Shown: positions 8,645 through 54,253 of the stretch, in pieces
How positions within the stretch are numbered: the first letter of the stretch is position 1
Layout of the letters: each line of letters opens with the position of its first letter
IMG/VR virus record: IMGVR_UViG_3300049914_000132
Span: 1 to 61,801 of that record
Strand: one strand, 5' to 3'
Origin: a virus
Taxonomy: Duplodnaviria > Caudoviricetes
DNA: 61,801 bases
Translations under genes and position numbers: made by a program
The notes under the pieces: model-generated
What the model was told of the DNA's origin: nothing
The model's database searches: none
What the model saw: only the letters and a program-made list of their open reading frames with translations

Positions 8645-9859
8645 TCAGTCAACCTCCACTTGCTCACCCCAATCACATGGAGCTCTCTTGTAGCGTCCGA
8701 CCAACAGCCAGATGACTCGGATGCCTACAGGAGCTTTCTCAGGACAAGTACCGTCGCCATCCGTCGCGAAGATTAGGATCTCCGGACGCGCAACTTTGCC
8801 CGGCTTCTCCGCGAGAGAAAACACAGGTGTAAAATCGGTCCCACCTCCACCTTTCATCAGTGGAATGATCTCTTCCCACCTAGTGACCTTCTTTACCTCG
8901 TGCACGTCCGCGTCTGCTGCGAGGAACGTAACAGGTGCTCCAGTTGCCTTGATAGCTCCTGCACCCTCTCTCAGGGCAGCAGTCAGCTCTTCTTTGCCCA
9001 TCGAGCCTGACGTGTCACAGACGAACCAGACCTCTGGGACGGACTTGCGCAGGGCTGGCAGGATAGGCTTGCCGACTCCGTAGCCGAGCCCTGCTTGACG
9101 CCTGGAGGGCTGGTCGTAGCGATAGTCCACAGCACCCATCTTCCAGGCGACGGCCATCTTTGTGGCCCTGGAGAGCTTCTGTTGCCATGGAATCTTCGGA
9201 GTGCCTAGCTGCTCGTCTGCCCATCTCAGGTAGGCTTCAGGCACGTTTCCTCGACTTTTGGCTGACTGAATCTCATGTGCTACCTGCTTCCGGATGCGCT
9301 CTTTCTCAGTCGCAGATCGCCCACCTTCCGCTTGCCCTTCTGGCTCGTCTGGCATGCTGTGTCCGCCTGCTGAGCCACACCAGCCCTGACCGACGCTGGG
9401 CTTGCTTGGCGCTTTGGAGTGCCCCCCTTGCCCATCGCTGCATTGCTTCCGGATGTCGTGGTAATACTGCTCAGCCAGACCGCCATCTTTCAGACCGAAA
9501 TCTGCTGGCTTGATACCCGTACCGTGCGGAAACATTGCGCCTGCTGAAATCATGTCGTCGTTGATCTCAAGGTCTCCGGCAATGTTGAAGAGTGTGTGAT
9601 CCAGACTAGCCTTTTCACAGCGCTCCGCGTGCCTTCGGAGCACGTGCCAACATTCATGTTCCAGAGCGCAGGCAATCCCGGACACATCCCACTCCTGAAT
9701 GGCTTGTGGGTCCCAGAGCAACAGCCATTCCTTTGTGACACCCACAGTCCCGAGCCCTGGAGTTTCTCTCGGCACGAGTGCGTACAGTACGCTGGACAGA
9801 TACGGTGAGCGCTGACGCGCCTTGAGCCGACCTGCCATCAGTTTCTCAATAGGCTTCAT
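8645..9859 (-). CDS. Metallopeptidase-like + VWA domain protein (MoxR partner)
   Basis: HECWH (HExxH), NIAGDLEIN, DTSGS MIDAS, GGGGTDF, TDG. Confidence 0.85.
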   Translation of the reverse strand: MKPIEKLMAGRLKARQRSPYLSSVLYALVPRETPGLGTVGVTKEWLLLWDPQAIQEWDVSGIACALEHECWHVLRRHAERCEKASLDHTLFNIAGDLEINDDMISAGAMFPHGTGIKPADFGLKDGGLAEQYYHDIRKQCSDGQGGHSKAPSKPSVGQGWCGSAGGHSMPDEPEGQAEGGRSATEKERIRKQVAHEIQSAKSRGNVPEAYLRWADEQLGTPKIPWQQKLSRATKMAVAWKMGAVDYRYDQPSRRQAGLGYGVGKPILPALRKSVPEVWFVCDTSGSMGKEELTAALREGAGAIKATGAPVTFLAADADVHEVKKVTRWEEIIPLMKGGGGTDFTPVFSLAEKPGKVARPEILIFATDGDGTCPEKAPVGIRVIWLLVGRYKRAPCDWGEQVEVD

Positions 9860-45808: not shown

Positions 45809-47326
45809 ATGCCAAGTCAAGCGCAGATACTTCAGCCGACTCTGACGGCTCAGCCTGCTGACCTTCGGGCGCGAGCGGCAGAAGCTCTTAGGGCTACAGT
45901 TGCGCTCTCAGCTCAAGACCCTTCAACATTCTTGGAGTACGTACTTCGCGACGAGATGACTGGAAAGCCTATCCGTCAGGCTCCAATTCACGAGGCTTGG
46001 CATTCGCTGATCAGTGAGCACCATCGCCTTGTCATCTGGTCTCATACAGAGAGTGGCAAGAGCTTTTCCATTAGTATTGGTCGTGTACTGTGGGAGCTTG
46101 GTAGGAATCCGAACCTGCGCATTGTCGTGCTCTCGAACACGCACGGACAAGCGAAGAAGATCGTCAGGACAATCTCGCGTTACATCGAAACCAGTGCAGA
46201 GCTGAAAGCAGTCTTTCCATATCTGAAGCCTGGCTATGGCCCTTGGACTGAGACCATGCTGACTGTAGAACGCACGGTCATCAGCAAGGACCCAAGCGTT
46301 CAAGCGTTTGGTGTGCATGGGAACATCACAGGCTCTCGCGTTGATCTTGTGATTGTGGATGACATCTTGGACCCTGAGAACACAAGGTCAGACAAGAGCA
46401 GGCAGGAGCTTTCAGACTGGTACAGTGCGACAGTCAGTGGGCGTCTTACGGAGAAGGCTCGCGTTATCGTGGTTGGCACTGCATACCATCCAGACGATTT
46501 GTTGCACAGGTTCGCACGGAACCCGATGTGGAAAGCCTTTCGCTATCCTGTGATCGATCCGTCTACTCATTTGCCTGGGTGGCCTGCACGCTGGAGCCCT
46601 ACACGCATAGAGCAGCGGAGGATAGAGCTTGGCCCTTTGGAGTTCGCACGGCAGATGATGTGCGAAGCTCGGGATGACAGTGAGAGCCGGTTCAAGCAGG
46701 CTGCAATCAGCAAGTGCATGGAGCGTGGTGAAGGTCGGAGGCTGCTTGGGAACACTCCACGCGACTACTTGATGTACGTCCCGCTCGGCTGTCAGGTCTA
46801 CACAGGTGTTGACCTTGCAGTGCAGAAGAAGGCATCTGCCGACTTGACCGTGTTCTTCACGATCATTGTGCACCCAGACAGCAGCAGAGAAGTTCTGAAC
46901 ATATTGGCGGGACGCTTTAGCGGACCCGACATCGTCAGCAGGACTATAGACATTCACAAGCGCTTCCAGGGCGTCATGATCGTAGAGTCTAACGGCGCTC
47001 AGGATTATATATTGCAATTCACACGGGATAGAAGTGCTGTGCCTGTTCGTCCGTTCGTGACAGGTAAGAACAAGTGGGATCCTGCTTTTGGTATTGAGTC
47101 CTTGTCGGTAGAGCTGGACAACGCCAAATGGATCATACCGAACGAGGGTGGGATATGCGACTCCGAGGTAGACGCATGGATCAAAGAGATGTTGTACTAC
47201 GATCCGAAGGCACATACAGGCGATAGGCTCATGGCTTCGTACTTTGCTCGTGAGGGCGCACGGTCTATGTACAGTGCAGGCAGTTCGTCTGGAGAGGTTG
47301 GGCGCGTGGACTTGATGTCTAGATAG
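45809..47326 (+). CDS. terL: Terminase large subunit
   Basis: HTESGKS Walker A, ITGSRVDLVIVDD Walker B, VGTAYH.DDL, GVDLA, VESNGAQ, GDRLMA nuclease motifs. Confidence 0.9.
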   Translation: MPSQAQILQPTLTAQPADLRARAAEALRATVALSAQDPSTFLEYVLRDEMTGKPIRQAPIHEAWHSLISEHHRLVIWSHTESGKSFSISIGRVLWELGRNPNLRIVVLSNTHGQAKKIVRTISRYIETSAELKAVFPYLKPGYGPWTETMLTVERTVISKDPSVQAFGVHGNITGSRVDLVIVDDILDPENTRSDKSRQELSDWYSATVSGRLTEKARVIVVGTAYHPDDLLHRFARNPMWKAFRYPVIDPSTHLPGWPARWSPTRIEQRRIELGPLEFARQMMCEARDDSESRFKQAAISKCMERGEGRRLLGNTPRDYLMYVPLGCQVYTGVDLAVQKKASADLTVFFTIIVHPDSSREVLNILAGRFSGPDIVSRTIDIHKRFQGVMIVESNGAQDYILQFTRDRSAVPVRPFVTGKNKWDPAFGIESLSVELDNAKWIIPNEGGICDSEVDAWIKEMLYYDPKAHTGDRLMASYFAREGARSMYSAGSSSGEVGRVDLMSR

Positions 47327-47345
47327 AACAACGAAAGGATCAAAC

Positions 47346-47540
47346 ATGGCACAAGGTGAATTCACTAAGGAAGAAGCACATGCAACCATCAAAGCAGTTG
47401 AAGAACTTCATGCGGCGTTGCCCAAAGGAAGACGTGCGGATTTCATTGGGCACTTGAACGACATCTACCTTTTCCTTCAAGCAGCGGAGGAAGTTGCTCC
47501 TGAGAAAACTGCACAGCTTGGGAAGACTGATGGCTCGTAG
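47346..47540 (+). CDS. Hypothetical protein
   Basis: AAGGA RBS. Confidence 0.55.
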   Translation: MAQGEFTKEEAHATIKAVEELHAALPKGRRADFIGHLNDIYLFLQAAEEVAPEKTAQLGKTDGS

Positions 47541-47874
47541 GGCCAATCAGATGGTCAGAGGCATGGATCGCATAGAGCTTGAAGCCAACCTGTCCAAGAT
47601 ATCTGCTGCGTACGCTGAACTCAGGCTGATGGGGACACCGTGCTTGAACTGTGCAGTTGCAGCTATCTACAAGTGCATTGATCCTTCGTGCAAAGTTGGG
47701 AGGACTGCTGGCATGGTCATAGGTTCTATTAGTGTTTGTGCAGACAGATCTATGTTGAGAGCTGCCAGAGATGCTCTCAAGCGCCGCAAAGTTCGTTTTA
47801 TGGATGTGATCTATTACATGAACACGCAAAAGTTGATTGACCGAAGTGCCTATGTGGAACGTTATTCATTCTGA
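47530..47874 (+). CDS. Cys-rich protein (AAYxEL.L.G..CxxC family)
   Basis: SAAYAELRLMGTPCLNC. Confidence 0.5.
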   Translation: MARRANQMVRGMDRIELEANLSKISAAYAELRLMGTPCLNCAVAAIYKCIDPSCKVGRTAGMVIGSISVCADRSMLRAARDALKRRKVRFMDVIYYMNTQKLIDRSAYVERYSF

Positions 47875-50203
47875 GTGCATGCTTGCAATGCACAAGATGG
47901 AGCCCAACAGCGCTGACGCTGTGGTGACTGATCCACCGTACGAGCTTGGGTTCATGGGTAAGGGTTGGGACAAGTCAGGGATCGCAAACTCCGTCAGAAT
48001 GTGGCGTGAGGTCTTTCGTGTGCTCAAGCCAGGTGGTTACTTGCTCAGCTTCGGTGGAACTCGAACCTATCACCGGATGGCTTGCGCGATCGAAGACGCA
48101 GGGTTTGAGATCCGTGATAGCTTGGACTGGCTGTATGGCTGCTTGAGTGAGGACACTGAGATCCTGGTTAATGGAGAGTGGGAACATTACCGTAAAGCCG
48201 TTGCAGGGAGTCTCGCATTATGCTATGATGTACAGTATGACACGCTCTCTTGGCAAGAGATCCAAGAAGTCTTTGCCTATCCGTACAATGATACCGCCTT
48301 CCGAATTCAGTCGAATAGTACGGATCAGATCGTCTCCAGAAACCATCGCTGCCTTATTGAACGAGACGGAGCGCTCATTTTTTCTATCGCAGAAGAAGTT
48401 GCACGGGAATGCTCGGCGCGTGTACCCGTTTTGGAAGATCTGTCTGGTCTGTTTGAGGCCCTTCCAGTGCCACACCAAGGAACAAGTTTCCAGGAACAAG
48501 ACATGCACTATGGGTTGTGCGACAAGCTTACTGGGCAAGTATCCGAGACCACAGAAGCGCTCAAACGCAAAGTGCTCGGTGTGCAACAAACAGATCTATC
48601 GGTTTCCGAGTCACCTTCTTCGGGTTCAGACTCCAACCTGCTCTCGTCAATGCAATGGGAAACTTCGAGGGTTAGCGTGGAAAGCTCATGCACACAAGGG
48701 GAGGAAGGCATGGACAAAAGAATCCGAGATTGCATTTCGAGGGAAGATGTCAGGGTCACTCAATCCAGCGTGGAAGGGCGGGGTGACATTCTTCAAGAAG
48801 CATGGCAACTACAAGGGTGTCCGATACGTTCGGTGTCCGGCCATGCTTATTCAGATGGCACGGAAGGACGGGTACGTCATGGAGCATCGTTTGATTGTGG
48901 CAAAGCTGATCGGGCGCTGCCTTTTACAGATGGAGATAGTCCATCACGAAGACCGAGACCCACAAAACAACAAGCCATTGAATCTGATGTTGTTCAGATC
49001 AAACAAGGAGCACAAACTGTACGAGCATCACGGTTCGCCTCTTCCGATCTGGCGAGGGTCACACCTTTCCACCTCATTGGAACAGTGTGGTGCGTGAAGG
49101 TTCCGACTGGCGCGTTTGTCGCACGTCGAAACGGTAAGATCTTCATTACTGGTAACTCTGGCTTCCCGAAGTCGCTGGACATCAGCTTGGCGATAGACAC
49201 AAAGCTTGGAAAGAGCCGGAAGGCGATTGGTCCTGCGACCAGGCATGGGGGTGGGGACAGCAAGGTCATGGTGGGCGACTACAACGCCCCAAGGACCGCG
49301 CCTGCCAGCCCCCAGGCAGCTCTTTGGGATGGGTGGGGCACAGCCCTGAAGCCAGCGCACGAGCCGATTGTGCTCGCCCGCAAGCCCTTCTCGGGGACCA
49401 TTGTGGCGCACGTGCTCAAGCACGGTACAGGGGGTATCAACGTCGGGGCGTGCAGGCTGGGAACGACTGAGAACCTTGGGAGGAACAACAAGAGTCAGGC
49501 GACATGGGGAAATTATGGGAATGGACCAAGCAGCCAATTAGGACTTCCGATTTCTGATCAGAGTCGTTTCCCTCCAAACGTTCTGCTCAGCCATTCACCT
49601 GCATGCGGGAAGAAGTGCGCTCCAGGCTGTCCTGTTGCAGCATTGGACAAGCAGAGCGGGATCTTGAAGGGTGGAACGATCAAAGCATCAACTGTTACAA
49701 AAGGTGGCTCAAGAATCGGGACGTTCAATATTCGAGAACGGACGGGACGTCAGTATGTTGGGTCTGTAGGTGGAGCGTCCAAGTTCTTTCCGATCTTGAA
49801 CTGGGATCCGATGGACTTCGACTTCTTCCGCTACCAAGCAAAGCCATCGAACACCGAACGGGATGCAGGATGTGCAGGAGAGGGCACAGCAGCAGAAGTT
49901 ACCGGCCGAGAGCCGGATAGCAGAGGGCTGAACAACTCAAGGTCAGGGATGCGCCGGAAAGGATCAGTTGGCAACGAACACCCTACGGTCAAACCTATCA
50001 CCCTCATGGGCTGGCTCTGCAAGCTCATCACACCGAAAGGTGGGCTCATACTCGATCCGTTCTGTGGTTCTGGGACAACAGGTTGTGCGGCAATCTGGCT
50101 CGGGTTCAACTTCATAGGGATTGATCAGTCAGCAGAGTACGCTGAGCTAGCCCGTGGGAGGATAGCAGCATACGAGAAACACTTGGCCAGCAAGCACAAA
50201 TAG
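47852..50203 (+). CDS. Beta-class N4/N6 DNA methyltransferase containing an intein
   Basis: VTDPPY, RVLKPGG, WLYG|SGFPKS, LKPAHEPI, HPTVKP, LDPFCGSGTTG. Confidence 0.92.
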   Translation: MWNVIHSECMLAMHKMEPNSADAVVTDPPYELGFMGKGWDKSGIANSVRMWREVFRVLKPGGYLLSFGGTRTYHRMACAIEDAGFEIRDSLDWLYGCLSEDTEILVNGEWEHYRKAVAGSLALCYDVQYDTLSWQEIQEVFAYPYNDTAFRIQSNSTDQIVSRNHRCLIERDGALIFSIAEEVARECSARVPVLEDLSGLFEALPVPHQGTSFQEQDMHYGLCDKLTGQVSETTEALKRKVLGVQQTDLSVSESPSSGSDSNLLSSMQWETSRVSVESSCTQGEEGMDKRIRDCISREDVRVTQSSVEGRGDILQEAWQLQGCPIRSVSGHAYSDGTEGRVRHGASFDCGKADRALPFTDGDSPSRRPRPTKQQAIESDVVQIKQGAQTVRASRFASSDLARVTPFHLIGTVWCVKVPTGAFVARRNGKIFITGNSGFPKSLDISLAIDTKLGKSRKAIGPATRHGGGDSKVMVGDYNAPRTAPASPQAALWDGWGTALKPAHEPIVLARKPFSGTIVAHVLKHGTGGINVGACRLGTTENLGRNNKSQATWGNYGNGPSSQLGLPISDQSRFPPNVLLSHSPACGKKCAPGCPVAALDKQSGILKGGTIKASTVTKGGSRIGTFNIRERTGRQYVGSVGGASKFFPILNWDPMDFDFFRYQAKPSNTERDAGCAGEGTAAEVTGREPDSRGLNNSRSGMRRKGSVGNEHPTVKPITLMGWLCKLITPKGGLILDPFCGSGTTGCAAIWLGFNFIGIDQSAEYAELARGRIAAYEKHLASKHK
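48140..49156 (+). mobile_element. Intein (339 aa) in the methyltransferase
   Basis: Begins CLSEDTEIL (block A), SRNHRCL (block B), VWCVKVPTGAFVARRNGKIFITGN|S (blocks F/G); removing it restores the conserved WLYG-SGFPK. Confidence 0.9.
48147..49097 (+). CDS. HNH homing endonuclease in the +1 frame inside the intein (true start uncertain)
   Basis: CLVC..C..C and CSVC..CSRQC zinc fingers, NPAWKGG, GYVMEHRLI, EIVHHEDRDPQNNKPLNLML..H. Confidence 0.85.
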   Translation: MRTLRSWLMESGNITVKPLQGVSHYAMMYSMTRSLGKRSKKSLPIRTMIPPSEFSRIVRIRSSPETIAALLNETERSFFLSQKKLHGNARRVYPFWKICLVCLRPFQCHTKEQVSRNKTCTMGCATSLLGKYPRPQKRSNAKCSVCNKQIYRFPSHLLRVQTPTCSRQCNGKLRGLAWKAHAHKGRKAWTKESEIAFRGKMSGSLNPAWKGGVTFFKKHGNYKGVRYVRCPAMLIQMARKDGYVMEHRLIVAKLIGRCLLQMEIVHHEDRDPQNNKPLNLMLFRSNKEHKLYEHHGSPLPIWRGSHLSTSLEQCGA

Positions 50204-50242
50204 TGCTTGCCTTGTTAGTGCTAGTGTGCTAAGCTGCGTAGT

Positions 50243-50515
50243 GTGAGGCTAGGCAACGGCAAGATGACAAAGCGGGATAGGATACAGGCTGCATGCTCCG
50301 AACTGGCATTGTTTGGGCATGCTTGCTTGGAGTGCCCGATCAATAGAGTAGTACGCTGTTCTACTCTGTCTGATATATCATACTGCTTTCATACACCGAA
50401 TGTACGCGCTCGTGTAGAGCACATTTTCCTTCAGTACGGTGTCTCAAAGCTTGAAGTTGTAGAATGTGCAAGAATGATGGAGTTCGGCGCTAGGAACCGC
50501 TTGGCTCGGGAATGA
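50243..50515 (+). CDS. Cys-rich paralog
   Basis: DRIQAACSELALFGHACLEC...YGV. Confidence 0.55.
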   Translation: MRLGNGKMTKRDRIQAACSELALFGHACLECPINRVVRCSTLSDISYCFHTPNVRARVEHIFLQYGVSKLEVVECARMMEFGARNRLARE

Positions 50516-52549: not shown

Positions 52550-54253
52550 ATGTTGGGCGCGGGAGGTTACGTGAGTTCAGGTACGATTACCGAGCCTTAT
52601 GCAGCCAAGAAGGTGTCCGGAGCAGCCGGAGACCGCATACTGGAGAAGGTCAAGCGCCTTGGCATGACGCCGAGGCAGCAAGCTCTGAATGCTTTGTGGG
52701 CTTGGTACAGGACGCAGCACTACGACGCCAGGCGTTGTGATTGGGATGGGACGGAGCGCGTTCAAGGCATCGATCATGAAGCAATCGCAACGGCAGGATT
52801 CATTCCTCCAGGCTTCTACGATGCAGGCCAGACGTTTCCGATCAAGTTCAGACGCCCGACTGCGCCTTATGCTCTCATCAAAGTCATCGTAGATCGCTTC
52901 ACTGGCTTGCTGTTCTCAGAGCGCCGTCACCCTCATCTTCGTGTGGATGGCGATCATAAGACTGAGGACTACGTTCAAGCACTTGCAGAAGCAGCACGAC
53001 TATGGCCTGCAATGATTCAAGCTCGAACGTATGGGGGCGCGACAGGCTCTGTTGCAATTGGATTCAAGTTCATCGAAGGGAAGCCTATAGTAGAAGTTCA
53101 CGATCCTCGGTGGATGTTTCCTGACTTCAAAGACAGGGAACAGCTTGTCTTGAAGTCAGTCGAGAAACGATACCAGTACCCTGTTGAAATCCAGAATGAA
53201 GTGACGGGAGACTGGGAAGAGGTTCCCCATTGGTACAGGAGAGTGATCAACGAGAAGTCTGATGTGCTATACGAGCCCGTTCCTGTTCCCAAGGATGGCA
53301 GCGAGCCTGAATGGAAAGAGCAGCAGCATGTTGAACATCGGTTTGGGTTCTGTCCTGTGGTTTGGGTGCAGAACCTTCCTGTACAAGACGACGTGGATGG
53401 TGACCCTGACTGTCATGGCATCTATGATCTTGCAGAGGCAATTGATGCATTGATATCACAGGGAAATAGAGGTACGACTGCGAACTGCGATCCGACGTTA
53501 GTGATCATCACAGAGGCCAAGTTGGCAGACGTACGCAAGGGTAGTGACAACGCCATCAAGCTTCCGCCAAACTCTTCCGCTCAGTATCTTGAGATCTCAG
53601 GTCAGGGACCGAAGTCTGCATTGGACACAGCAGGACAACTCAGAACGTATGCACTTGAGGTTGCGCAGTGCGTTCTTGATCATCCGGATGTTGCGAACAG
53701 GACAGCGACAGAAGTAGAGCGTGTGTTCTCTTCAATGCTTTCCAAAGCGGACATCCTACGAGAACAGTACGGGCAGAAGGGCGTTCTTCCTCTCGTTGAA
53801 ATGATGATCAAGTCTATCCGAATGCTCGGAAAGTCTAAGGCTGTTTCTGTTGTGAGGCAATCTGAGGAAGGTGAGCAGACTGTCCCAGAAATTCAGAGTC
53901 AGTTTGTCAAACTGCCTGACCGTGTGATTCCTGGCGTAGATGGGGAACCTGCGAAGCGCGAGAAGCGCGAGCTTGGTCCGCCAGGCAGTGTTGTCGTGAT
54001 TCAGTGGGGTGCTTACTTCGACTCCAGCACAACGGACATTGCAGCTTCTTCAGATGCTGCGACCAAGGCTCAGCAAGGCGGTCTCATTGATCAGGAGCAT
54101 GCAGCCCGGTTCGTTGCTCCGTACTTCCATGTGGAAGATGTGCCCGAGATGCTTGCCAAGGTGAAAAGGGAAAAGGAAGAAGCACAGGCAGCGATGGATC
54201 AGCAGCTCATGGGTGGGATGGGCCAGAACCAAGGTTGGTCGGAGAATGAATGA
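52550..54253 (+). CDS. Portal protein (SPP1 gp6-like)
   Basis: 567 aa; IVDRFTGLLF, HRFGFCPVVWVQNLP..DG..D, IDALISQ..R; downstream of TerL. Confidence 0.8.
   Translation: MLGAGGYVSSGTITEPYAAKKVSGAAGDRILEKVKRLGMTPRQQALNALWAWYRTQHYDARRCDWDGTERVQGIDHEAIATAGFIPPGFYDAGQTFPIKFRRPTAPYALIKVIVDRFTGLLFSERRHPHLRVDGDHKTEDYVQALAEAARLWPAMIQARTYGGATGSVAIGFKFIEGKPIVEVHDPRWMFPDFKDREQLVLKSVEKRYQYPVEIQNEVTGDWEEVPHWYRRVINEKSDVLYEPVPVPKDGSEPEWKEQQHVEHRFGFCPVVWVQNLPVQDDVDGDPDCHGIYDLAEAIDALISQGNRGTTANCDPTLVIITEAKLADVRKGSDNAIKLPPNSSAQYLEISGQGPKSALDTAGQLRTYALEVAQCVLDHPDVANRTATEVERVFSSMLSKADILREQYGQKGVLPLVEMMIKSIRMLGKSKAVSVVRQSEEGEQTVPEIQSQFVKLPDRVIPGVDGEPAKREKRELGPPGSVVVIQWGAYFDSSTTDIAASSDAATKAQQGGLIDQEHAARFVAPYFHVEDVPEMLAKVKREKEEAQAAMDQQLMGGMGQNQGWSENE

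Follow-up and report, generated by a model that had tools for sequence, protein, structure and literature searches.

The window analyzed here is the whole 61,801-nucleotide (nt) stretch of the uncultured phage record IMGVR_UViG_3300049914_000132. In this window, a gene for an N6/N4 DNA methyltransferase carries a long in-frame insert, and this insert is very probably a composite selfish element: an intein on which a free-standing HNH homing endonuclease gene is overprinted in the +1 reading frame. The same arrangement is found at 16 further loci, and codon-level comparison of these copies shows which of the two frames is selected along each part of the insert.

Translation of frame 0 would give a precursor of 788 amino acids (aa), from which a splicing (HINT) domain formed by intein residues 1–112 and 291–339 would excise the intein and join ...WLYG to SGFPKS.... 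Between the halves of this domain lie 178 residues, called the filler below, that would be a passenger loop at the place where the nuclease domains of inteins normally sit. They would leave with the intein, and the sole demand on them appears to be the absence of a stop codon. Internal initiation in +1, likely at the ATG at 48288, would yield a separate protein of about 269 aa with N-terminal helices, two zinc fingers, and an HNH core. This protein may cut intein-free methylase alleles, and the ensuing repair would copy the intein and the nuclease gene together.

Structure of the Intein

The open reading frame (ORF) of the methyltransferase precursor occupies 47837..50203 on the + strand and encodes 788 aa from TTG 47837, with no stop through the intein; ATG 47852 is an alternative start. 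Its product matches Pfam PF01555 (N6_N4_Mtase, E 3.6e-28) and the DNA methyltransferase family phrog_67 of PHROGs (E 5e-61). The ORF reads ...DWLYG, CLSEDTEILV...KIFITGN, and SGFPKS, i.e., 339 codons are inserted between DWLYG and SGFPKS. The insert therefore corresponds to 48140-49156 (+ strand) and comprises 339 aa in frame 0, from Cys1 to Thr-Gly-Asn, followed by Ser+1, as read from the sequence and from the alignment. The N-extein (47837..48139, +) ends in ...DWLYG, and its BLASTP alignment with the methylase of phage Megiddo runs over the junction. The C-extein (49157..50200, +), delimited by the ORF reading and BLASTP, begins with SGFPKS. At the DNA level, removal of the intein would leave the junction TATGGC^TCTGGC.

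The frame-0 alignment and model are based on 15 intein sequences (L001, L009, and L011 excluded), and C1, H69, R70, and N339 are invariant in all 15. The codon of the Cys1 nucleophile (48140-48142) lies directly after the N-extein. The S66-R-N-H69 segment, which we take to be block B in intein nomenclature, fits the Thr/Ser-x-x-His pattern, with H69 invariant and S66 at least 90% conserved. Furthermore, Ser+1 (SGFPK) follows N339 in all 16 loci that have the C-terminal end of the intein.

A HINT fold is predicted to be formed by residues 1–112 and 291–339. The N-terminal splicing half (residues 1–112, blocks A to N4; 48140..48475, +) is beta-rich in the AlphaFold model, and its predicted local distance difference test scores (pLDDT) average 85–95 over 10-residue blocks. 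The C-terminal splicing half (residues 291–339, blocks F and G, VWCVKVPTGAFVARRNGKIFITGN; 49010..49156, +) has block means of 83–95. The filler between them (residues 113–290, 178 aa; 48476..49009, +) is stop-free and predicted to be disordered, with pLDDT below 50. A Foldseek search with the frame-0 model returned inteins and Hedgehog autoprocessing domains, including seven matches at E<=1e-3. The best match is 9hth_B (E 5.9e-5), and 9hth_B, 6zgq, 6tyy, 2cw7, and 6rpq all have a probability of 1.00. An Rfam scan of 47700-49400 at E<=1 found no family, introns included, its sole match being a chance microRNA (E 0.3); the open host frame also argues against a group I or group II intron.

Block F of the intein holds a Cys (VWC), a Thr precedes the terminal Gly-Asn, and there is no penultimate His, all of which are conserved features. 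The fold matches at the top include a class 3 split intein (6zgq), but a class 3-like mechanism is opposed by the presence of Cys1 and the lack of a block-B Trp in the window intein.

The HNH Gene in the +1 Frame

The whole +1 open frame of the ORF list covers 48147..49097 on the + strand and contains 316 codons including the stop. Within it, the most likely HNH endonuclease gene is 48288..49097 (+), which would encode 269 aa (MIPPSEF...) from ATG 48288 to the TGA at 49095-49097; this choice is based on the onset of constraint, on the position of Met in relatives, and on the AlphaFold model. The residues given below were compared in a 44-sequence alignment, whose 43 relatives were hand-chosen from the best 120 of 459 and are not a random sample.

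The +1 product contains the pattern CxxC...CxxxC twice. Zinc finger 1 (C52, C55, C73, and C77; 48441..48518, +) and zinc finger 2 (C96, C99, C118, and C122; 48573..48653, +) are both invariant. They are followed by the NPAWKGG motif (48762..48782, +), of which N159, W162, K163, G164, and G165 are invariant, and by the HNH nuclease core (48873..49025, +), assigned from Pfam HNH_3 and PHROGs. The core reads YVMEH200R ... H219H220 ... N228/N232 ... N239..H242 and thus displays the pattern EHR...HH...NN...N..H. H200, H219, H220, N239, and H242 are invariant, and N228 and N232 are at least 90% conserved; from this conservation, catalytic or metal-binding roles may be assigned to the individual residues by inference. 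Indeed, the +1 product matches six HNH endonuclease families of PHROGs, with a best E value of 1.1e-14. The AlphaFold model of the product from ATG 48288, computed with the 44-sequence alignment, has a mean pLDDT of 86.1, and its first 30 residues form two helices with block means of 93–94.

This layout agrees with a preliminary description of the window made from the sequence alone, which had proposed a 339-aa intein (C...GN|S) splitting WLYG-SGFPK of the methyltransferase and a +1 ORF of 316 codons (48147-49097) with two zinc fingers, NPAWKGG, and an HNH motif. The former follows from the ORF reading of 48140-49156, and the latter from the ORF list and the PHROGs HNH families. The in-frame middle was described as stop-free and without motifs; it has 0 stops, and the in-frame insert matched no Pfam family at E<=0.1. 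The estimate that about 950 nt are dual-coded holds for the open frame, which is 951 nt long, but coding constraint on +1 extends over only about 810 nt (48288-49097).

Selection in the Two Overlapping Frames

A search with the +1 protein identified 4 viral loci, 19 genome-bin loci, and the 484-kb uncultured phage LR756508.1. Among the 19 genome-bin loci, eleven (L007-L010, L012-L017, and L023) share both the intein site and the +1 position of the HNH, five (L018-L022) have the HNH in +1 and no intein, one (L011) has its filler and C-terminal splicing block in different frames, and two (L024 and L025) are weak matches outside the analysis. Together with the window, 17 loci carry an intein at this site and an HNH in +1 (the window, L001, L003-L010, L012-L017, and L023). 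The HNH proteins of the 16 others are 40–57% identical to that of the window and have the same +1 offset. The guanine-cytosine (GC) content of the intein ranges from 0.32 to 0.66 across the 17 loci. Nevertheless, no stop occurs in frame 0 of any of them and +1 is open for 226–330 codons, against 7–42 stops in the third frame, +2 (19 in the window intein).

The significance of this openness was assessed by fixing one of the two proteins and resampling synonymous codons from the extein usage of each locus, 5000 times per locus. With the HNH protein of the window fixed, frame 0 was open in 0/5000 resamples, with a mean of 14.5 stops expected; with the frame-0 protein fixed, +1 was likewise open in 0/5000, with a mean of 8.1 stops expected. 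Over the 17 loci, fixing the HNH protein gave an open frame 0 in 0/5000 resamples at 13 loci and a probability of <=0.0028 at the remaining 4 (means of 5–32 stops), and fixing the frame-0 protein gave probabilities of 0–0.024 for an open +1 frame. Each of the two frames is kept stop-free by selection, as compared with the 3–32 stops expected.

Divergence by codon position was determined from a frame-0 alignment of 16 loci (L009 excluded). Position 3 of frame 0 is the most variable at residues 1–65 (0.42–0.62) and 308–339 (0.65–0.68). At residues 100–307, the most variable position is position 1 of frame 0 (0.48–0.63), which is position 3 of +1, and the divergence at frame-0 position 3 drops to 0.18–0.28 in the HNH core. 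The filler (113–290) shows no frame-0 codon-position pattern, and the alignment made in the HNH frame gives the mirror image. Comparison of both frames across homologs, which the preliminary description had proposed, thus shows that purifying selection acts on frame 0 toward the two ends of the insert (residues 1–65 and 308–339) and on +1 between them (residues 100–307). Given this pattern of codon-position divergence, the central part of the insert behaves in evolution like a +1 gene, with frame 0 only kept open there.

Constraint on +1 was further examined by resampling synonymous codons with the frame-0 protein fixed, in 15 loci (L009 and the near-duplicate L017 excluded). At residues 1–20, 21–49, and 321–338, the +1 identity is 0.345, 0.200, and 0.285, respectively (0.279, 0.168, and 0.272 expected), and the +1 stops number 19, 7, and 12 (17.4, 8.1, and 10.8 expected). 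At residues 50–70 and 71–99, the +1 identity rises to 0.486 and 0.424, respectively, against 0.256 and 0.189 expected (z 22–23), and only 1 and 0 stops are present where 8.9 and 20.7 were expected. A stretch of about 50 codons (48288..48436, +) is therefore constrained in both frames. In frame 0, it encodes intein residues 50–99, which form structured beta strands, and in +1 it encodes the N-terminal helices of the HNH protein up to YPFWK; AlphaFold is confident for both products. At its end, 48411-48436 and the equivalent positions of other loci read (K/R)RVYPFWK in +1 and (S/R)VP(I/V/F)LE in frame 0, with high conservation in both.

At the Val codon preceding YPFW, which may be an additional start, 9 of the 12 loci showing this motif have GTG and one (L008) has TTG; the other two (L001 and L014) have neither.

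Observations Weighing against the Assignment

Several observations weigh against reading the insert as an active intein with an overprinted homing gene. On the side of the intein, the penultimate residue is an invariant Gly (G338) and not the usual His. A penultimate His is common but not universal, and inteins that splice without it are known. On the side of the HNH protein, the Pfam HNH_3 match of the window +1 ORF (E 4.2e-5) reaches 23.5 bits, below the curated cut-off of 24.8; a PF13392 match is precomputed for most HNH relatives, and the HNH of L018 scores 26.5 bits. As for a beta-beta-alpha-metal fold, a Foldseek search of the HNH model against the PDB gave no match at E<=1e-3, because the model is probably of a beads-on-a-string type (predicted template modeling score 0.47). 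With VIA-align, the best of 48,161 chains is I-HmuI (1u3e_M), the HNH endonuclease of a phage group I intron, with a modest Z of 5.0 and a root-mean-square deviation of 3.9 over 75 residues (model residues 163–250). The match to I-HmuI lies in the HNH core, and the zinc-finger and N-terminal helical parts are unmatched; I-HmuI is borne by an intron instead of being overprinted on an intein.

Others concern expression and individual family members. The closest protein relatives (P0001, P0007, and P0011) have no Met at position -45 from YPFW and start at -65/-66. No Shine-Dalgarno sequence precedes ATG 48288, which weighs little because about half of the other long ORFs of the window also have none. 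Among public runs, no RNA run containing the window stretch was found. In the genome-bin locus L011:1-1500, the filler (frame 0) is out of register with the C-terminal splicing block and the C-extein (frame 2), and at L009:2152-3654 the host frame continues past the HNH without a C-terminal splicing block; these two represent either copies in decay or misassembly in those bins. Finally, the protein P0242 is a hybrid of an HNH N-terminus and the frame-0 filler.

Distribution of the Element and Signs of a Homing Cycle

The layout recurs across many environmental phages and belongs to a large family. At E<=1e-3, there are 459 HNH relatives and 306 methylase precursors with a homologous intein N-domain. 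The N-terminal signature of the HNH protein, which is the +1 reading of intein block B, is present in 101 of the 107 testable sequences among the best 120 of the 459. Intein length was sought in 120 of the 306 precursors, in 109 of which both ends were seen (the other 11 have no pattern-recognizable end). The intein measures 295–363 aa in 100 of the 109; three are shortened to 205–226 aa with remnants of the HNH region, and six are mini-inteins of 157–166 aa. An in-frame HNH intein occurs in 0 of the 109 precursors, and a search for longer HNH-containing proteins, which is weak evidence for the absence of an in-frame fusion, yielded only P0242.

Intein-free relatives are found as well, i.e., the methylases of L018-L022 and of phage Mantra. 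Moreover, a 151-nt contig of run X3, with 3 mismatches in 36 nt to window positions 48083-48118, reads straight into WLYG SGF and therefore represents an intein-free allele of a related methylase. Two of the features by which a homing gene is recognized are thus present: a splicing element at one conserved site, together with empty, degenerate, and nuclease-less alleles.

The X3 allele comes from the same kind of freshwater-sediment sample.

A different function can be envisaged for an HNH protein that is real and translated in +1: it may have been co-opted, e.g., as a packaging-associated HNH or as a partner of the methyltransferase. The gene is indeed placed between the genes of the terminase large subunit (45809-47326) and the portal protein (52550-54253). 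HNH proteins next to terminase genes are described as common in phages (PMC3592412), and a possible host-useful role of hidden HNHs has also been raised (PMC11855218). However, across very different genomes the HNH is always lodged in the intein, whose site is conserved, nine of the 109 precursors have deleted or mini-intein derivatives, the related methylases of L018-L022 and Mantra lack the intein, and a LAGLIDADG intein occupies the same site in actinophages. This patchy distribution is that of a selfish homing element and not of an essential phage function, and co-option is therefore unlikely.

Other inserts of related methylases also hold hidden nucleases. At L018:1954-3876 (a Cupriavidus sp. 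record) and at L019-L022, an HNH of the same family as that of the window is nested in +1 in an in-frame insertion of the same methylase, with no intein. These HNH proteins show 43–54% identity over their C-terminal two thirds. The insertion lies between SGFPKS...CGC and C..CG...LGTALKPAHEP, flanked by Cys pairs of the host frame, at a position that matches neither the intein site nor the published ShiLan one. The host frame is open where 6–18 stops were expected (P<=0.0007 in 5/5 loci). At L002:880-3252, the gene for gp64 of Mycobacterium phage Mantra contains a ShiLan-type HNH ORF (1827-2516) in +2 between the duplicates EPVVVARKP and EPIVVARKP, and an in-frame LAGLIDADG-like insertion near the N-terminus. 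In this stretch of 65% GC, an open host frame is only mildly unlikely to arise by chance (P 0.04).

Start and Expression of the HNH Gene

Excess +1 identity and stop avoidance both begin at about intein residue 50, which coincides with ATG 48288, and this codon is most likely the start of the HNH gene as judged from the comparison of homologs. ATG codons at 48225, 48228, and 48237 are alternative starts further upstream. Among the best 120 of the 459 relatives, 99 have at least 43 residues ahead of YPFW. Eighty of these 99 have a Met at -43 to -52 from YPFW and the other 19 at -59 to -67; the window has both. An equivalent ATG is present in 7 loci, and in 4 of them (L005, L006, L007, and L012) a Shine-Dalgarno-like motif is seen ahead of it by visual reading; in L007 and L012 this motif is AAAGGAG, 8 nt ahead. 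A scan of 47300-50400 for sigma-70-like promoters found 0 sites, compared with a mean of 1.9 in shuffled sequences.

Alternatively, the HNH domain could be produced by programmed +1 ribosomal frameshifting or transcriptional slippage as an N-extein/N-intein/HNH fusion. Upstream of the HNH domain, +1 is free of stops from 48147 onward, a TTTTTT run is present at 48378..48383 (+), and the absence of a Shine-Dalgarno sequence before ATG 48288 would also fit. Yet the run occurs only in the window and in L010, i.e., in 2 of the 17 loci, and 8 of the 17 have no homopolymer of five or more between Cys1 and the zinc finger; no conserved slippery sequence was found at the frame transition. In addition, constraint on +1 begins about 30 codons upstream of the run, where the 80 of 99 relatives have their ATG, the +1 stops upstream of residue 50 occur at the chance rate (19 vs 17.4 and 7 vs 8.1), and the AAAGGAG of L007 and L012 points to initiation at that codon. 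Expression by a frameshift is therefore quite unlikely, and a conserved shift at the T-run was rejected on account of its presence in 2/17 loci only. Both routes had been put forward in the preliminary description. The internal start fits the Met 43–52 residues upstream of the first zinc finger in 80/99 relatives and the onset of +1 constraint there. The frameshift route does not fit, and the TTTTTTC placed at about 48377-48383 does exist but one base further on, with its C at 48384.

Independent Copies of the Locus

A contig of 18,953 nt from another sample and another study (X2) spans 47900-49400 of the window without a gap. It differs from the window by 4 substitutions, which fall at 49306-49321 and thus outside the intein. 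Pieces from X3-X5 likewise align with 0 gaps. Compensating frameshift errors in the assembly, which the preliminary description had named as an outcome that would overturn it, are excluded by this gap-free contig and by the 16 other loci with the same layout, and assembly error was rejected as an explanation on the same grounds. It is highly improbable that the layout arose from an ordinary intein with an in-frame HNH through two compensating indels, whether sequencing errors or recent mutations, while frame 0 happened to remain open: single frame breaks do occur in the family (L011 and P0242), but the independent contig, the shared +1 offset, the 0/5000 resamples with an open frame 0 in the window, the purifying selection on +1, and the count of 0/109 for an in-frame HNH form, with the weaker evidence of the longer-protein search, all stand against it.

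Comparison with Known Systems

One of the closest published counterparts is the ShiLan domain, a hidden out-of-frame HNH in actinophage DNA methylases reported in 2025 (Arsenault, Gosselin, Gogarten, PMC11855218). As described there, it resembles the window element in its PF01555 methylase host, in the stop-free host frame through the insert, and in an in-frame product predicted to be disordered. Its HNH and flanking zinc fingers are homologous to the window ORF, with tblastn matches of 27–30% identity (E 6e-12 to 3e-8) to ShiLan, Mantra, and others. However, the ShiLan domain, according to that account, has no splicing domain and its insert is thought to stay in the protein (PMC11855218), whereas the window has a complete intein. 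The ShiLan site, as seen in Mantra, lies within an EP(V/I)VVARKP duplication with the HNH in the third frame (+2), whereas the window site is WLYG|SGFPK with the HNH in +1. The window element is thus not a ShiLan domain, as the site, the splicing blocks, and the frame all differ. The statement in the preliminary description that out-of-frame HNHs in phage methylase insertions had been noted only rarely was a fair one, the published hidden HNH of this methylase family being, as reported, a non-intein insertion at another site (PMC11855218).

Non-canonical inteins with the nuclease in a separate frame have been reported from actinophages (Gosselin et al., bioRxiv 10.1101/2025.01.02.630785). The nucleases given in that preprint are endonuclease VII-like in frame 3, antisense LAGLIDADG and VSR-like, and in-frame HNH, and the authors propose that a free-standing nuclease gene invades the intein. 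As in the window, the nuclease is out of the intein frame and the in-frame middle is unrecognizable. The hosts named in the part of the preprint considered here are DNA polymerase, minor capsid, terminase, and thymidylate synthase genes, with no methylase and no out-of-frame HNH among them. Moreover, the second ORFs are described as typically outside the splicing domain (bioRxiv 10.1101/2025.01.02.630785), whereas the HNH gene of the window overlaps it by about 50 dual-constrained codons. An out-of-frame LAGLIDADG nuclease is also described for a cyanobacterial dnaX intein (Phillips et al., bioRxiv 10.64898/2026.09.14.751524). By that description, it is similar to the window in its same-strand overlapping nuclease ORF, in an overlap where the nuclease frame is under purifying selection and the intein frame is relaxed, and in coexisting mini-intein alleles. 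It differs in having a LAGLIDADG nuclease in a +2 ORF of a bacterial chromosomal replication gene, as opposed to a zinc-finger HNH in +1 of a phage methylase. Out-of-frame and antisense intein nucleases are credited to Gorbalenya 1998 ('Non-canonical inteins') by both preprints (bioRxiv 10.1101/2025.01.02.630785 and 10.64898/2026.09.14.751524). In the fractured genes, as reported by Dassa et al. 2009 (PMC2677866), split inteins have a free-standing nuclease gene between their halves. There too, the nuclease is a separate gene at the intein locus and not an intein domain, but the break runs through both the host gene and the intein, whereas the window intein is contiguous and its nuclease is overprinted.

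An actinophage methylase intein with an in-frame LAGLIDADG nuclease has been described (Gosselin et al. 2023, PMC9957025). In gp53 of the mycobacteriophage Megiddo (L026), the insertion site WLYG|SGFPKS is identical to that of the window. Its splicing blocks (CLTDDVEVLT, TDQLLTPNHRV, and VWCIGVPTGAFVARRHGLVFITGN) are homologous to those of the window, with a BLASTP alignment that crosses both junctions. The middle of the Megiddo intein is unrelated to that of the window and contains an in-frame nuclease. Since the site and the splicing blocks are shared and only the nuclease module differs, this comparison points to an exchange of the nuclease module on a common splicing scaffold between actinophage and window-type methylase inteins.

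A literature search found no published methylase intein with an out-of-frame HNH, although the supplements or repositories of related studies may list such cases. Out-of-frame nucleases in inteins and a hidden HNH in the methylase family were thus known already, and a methylase intein with an HNH in +1 appears to be a new combination.

Implications

A wider scenario, to which we give a little less than an even chance, is that one family of zinc-finger HNH nucleases colonized the genes of one methyltransferase family at no fewer than three sites, each time out of frame and with the host frame kept open, and at the intein site captured a pre-existing scaffold that also carries the actinophage LAGLIDADG. 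If so, overprinting would be a general way for a homing nuclease gene to sit in a protein-coding gene without an intron. If the proposed element is real, the start codon and N-terminal helices of the HNH gene would be written into about 50 codons of essential intein beta strands, and two selfish elements would be genetically welded. The nuclease would also have been caught joining an intein, as in a 'splicing first, nuclease later' route to canonical inteins. The same scaffold and site are found with an in-frame LAGLIDADG (actinophages) or an out-of-frame HNH, and homologous HNHs lie out of frame at other methylase sites. This series of methylase inserts is a concrete, testable case for the association and exchange of nucleases and inteins.

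Over the roughly 810 nt that are read in two frames, constraint acts on both frames, on +1 alone with frame 0 kept open, or on frame 0 alone. With these three regimes, the overlap is a natural benchmark for methods of overlapping-gene detection. Where the methylase ORF is unbroken, the HNH will be missed by gene finders that do not allow nested genes, and the intein will resemble a decayed one. The intein, moreover, accommodates an insert of 178 residues that is predicted to be disordered, and the HNH protein is a candidate site-specific nuclease.

Genomic Context

The record is linear, with a CheckV completeness of 64%. According to PHROGs, the gene content of the window includes helicases, a DNA polymerase, a UvsX-like recombinase, SbcCD, a terminase large subunit, and a portal protein, the terminase large subunit gene being directly upstream of the methyltransferase ORF. 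A second HNH endonuclease gene is located at 8645-9859 on the - strand and encodes 404 aa (phrog_1314, E 1.7e-54).

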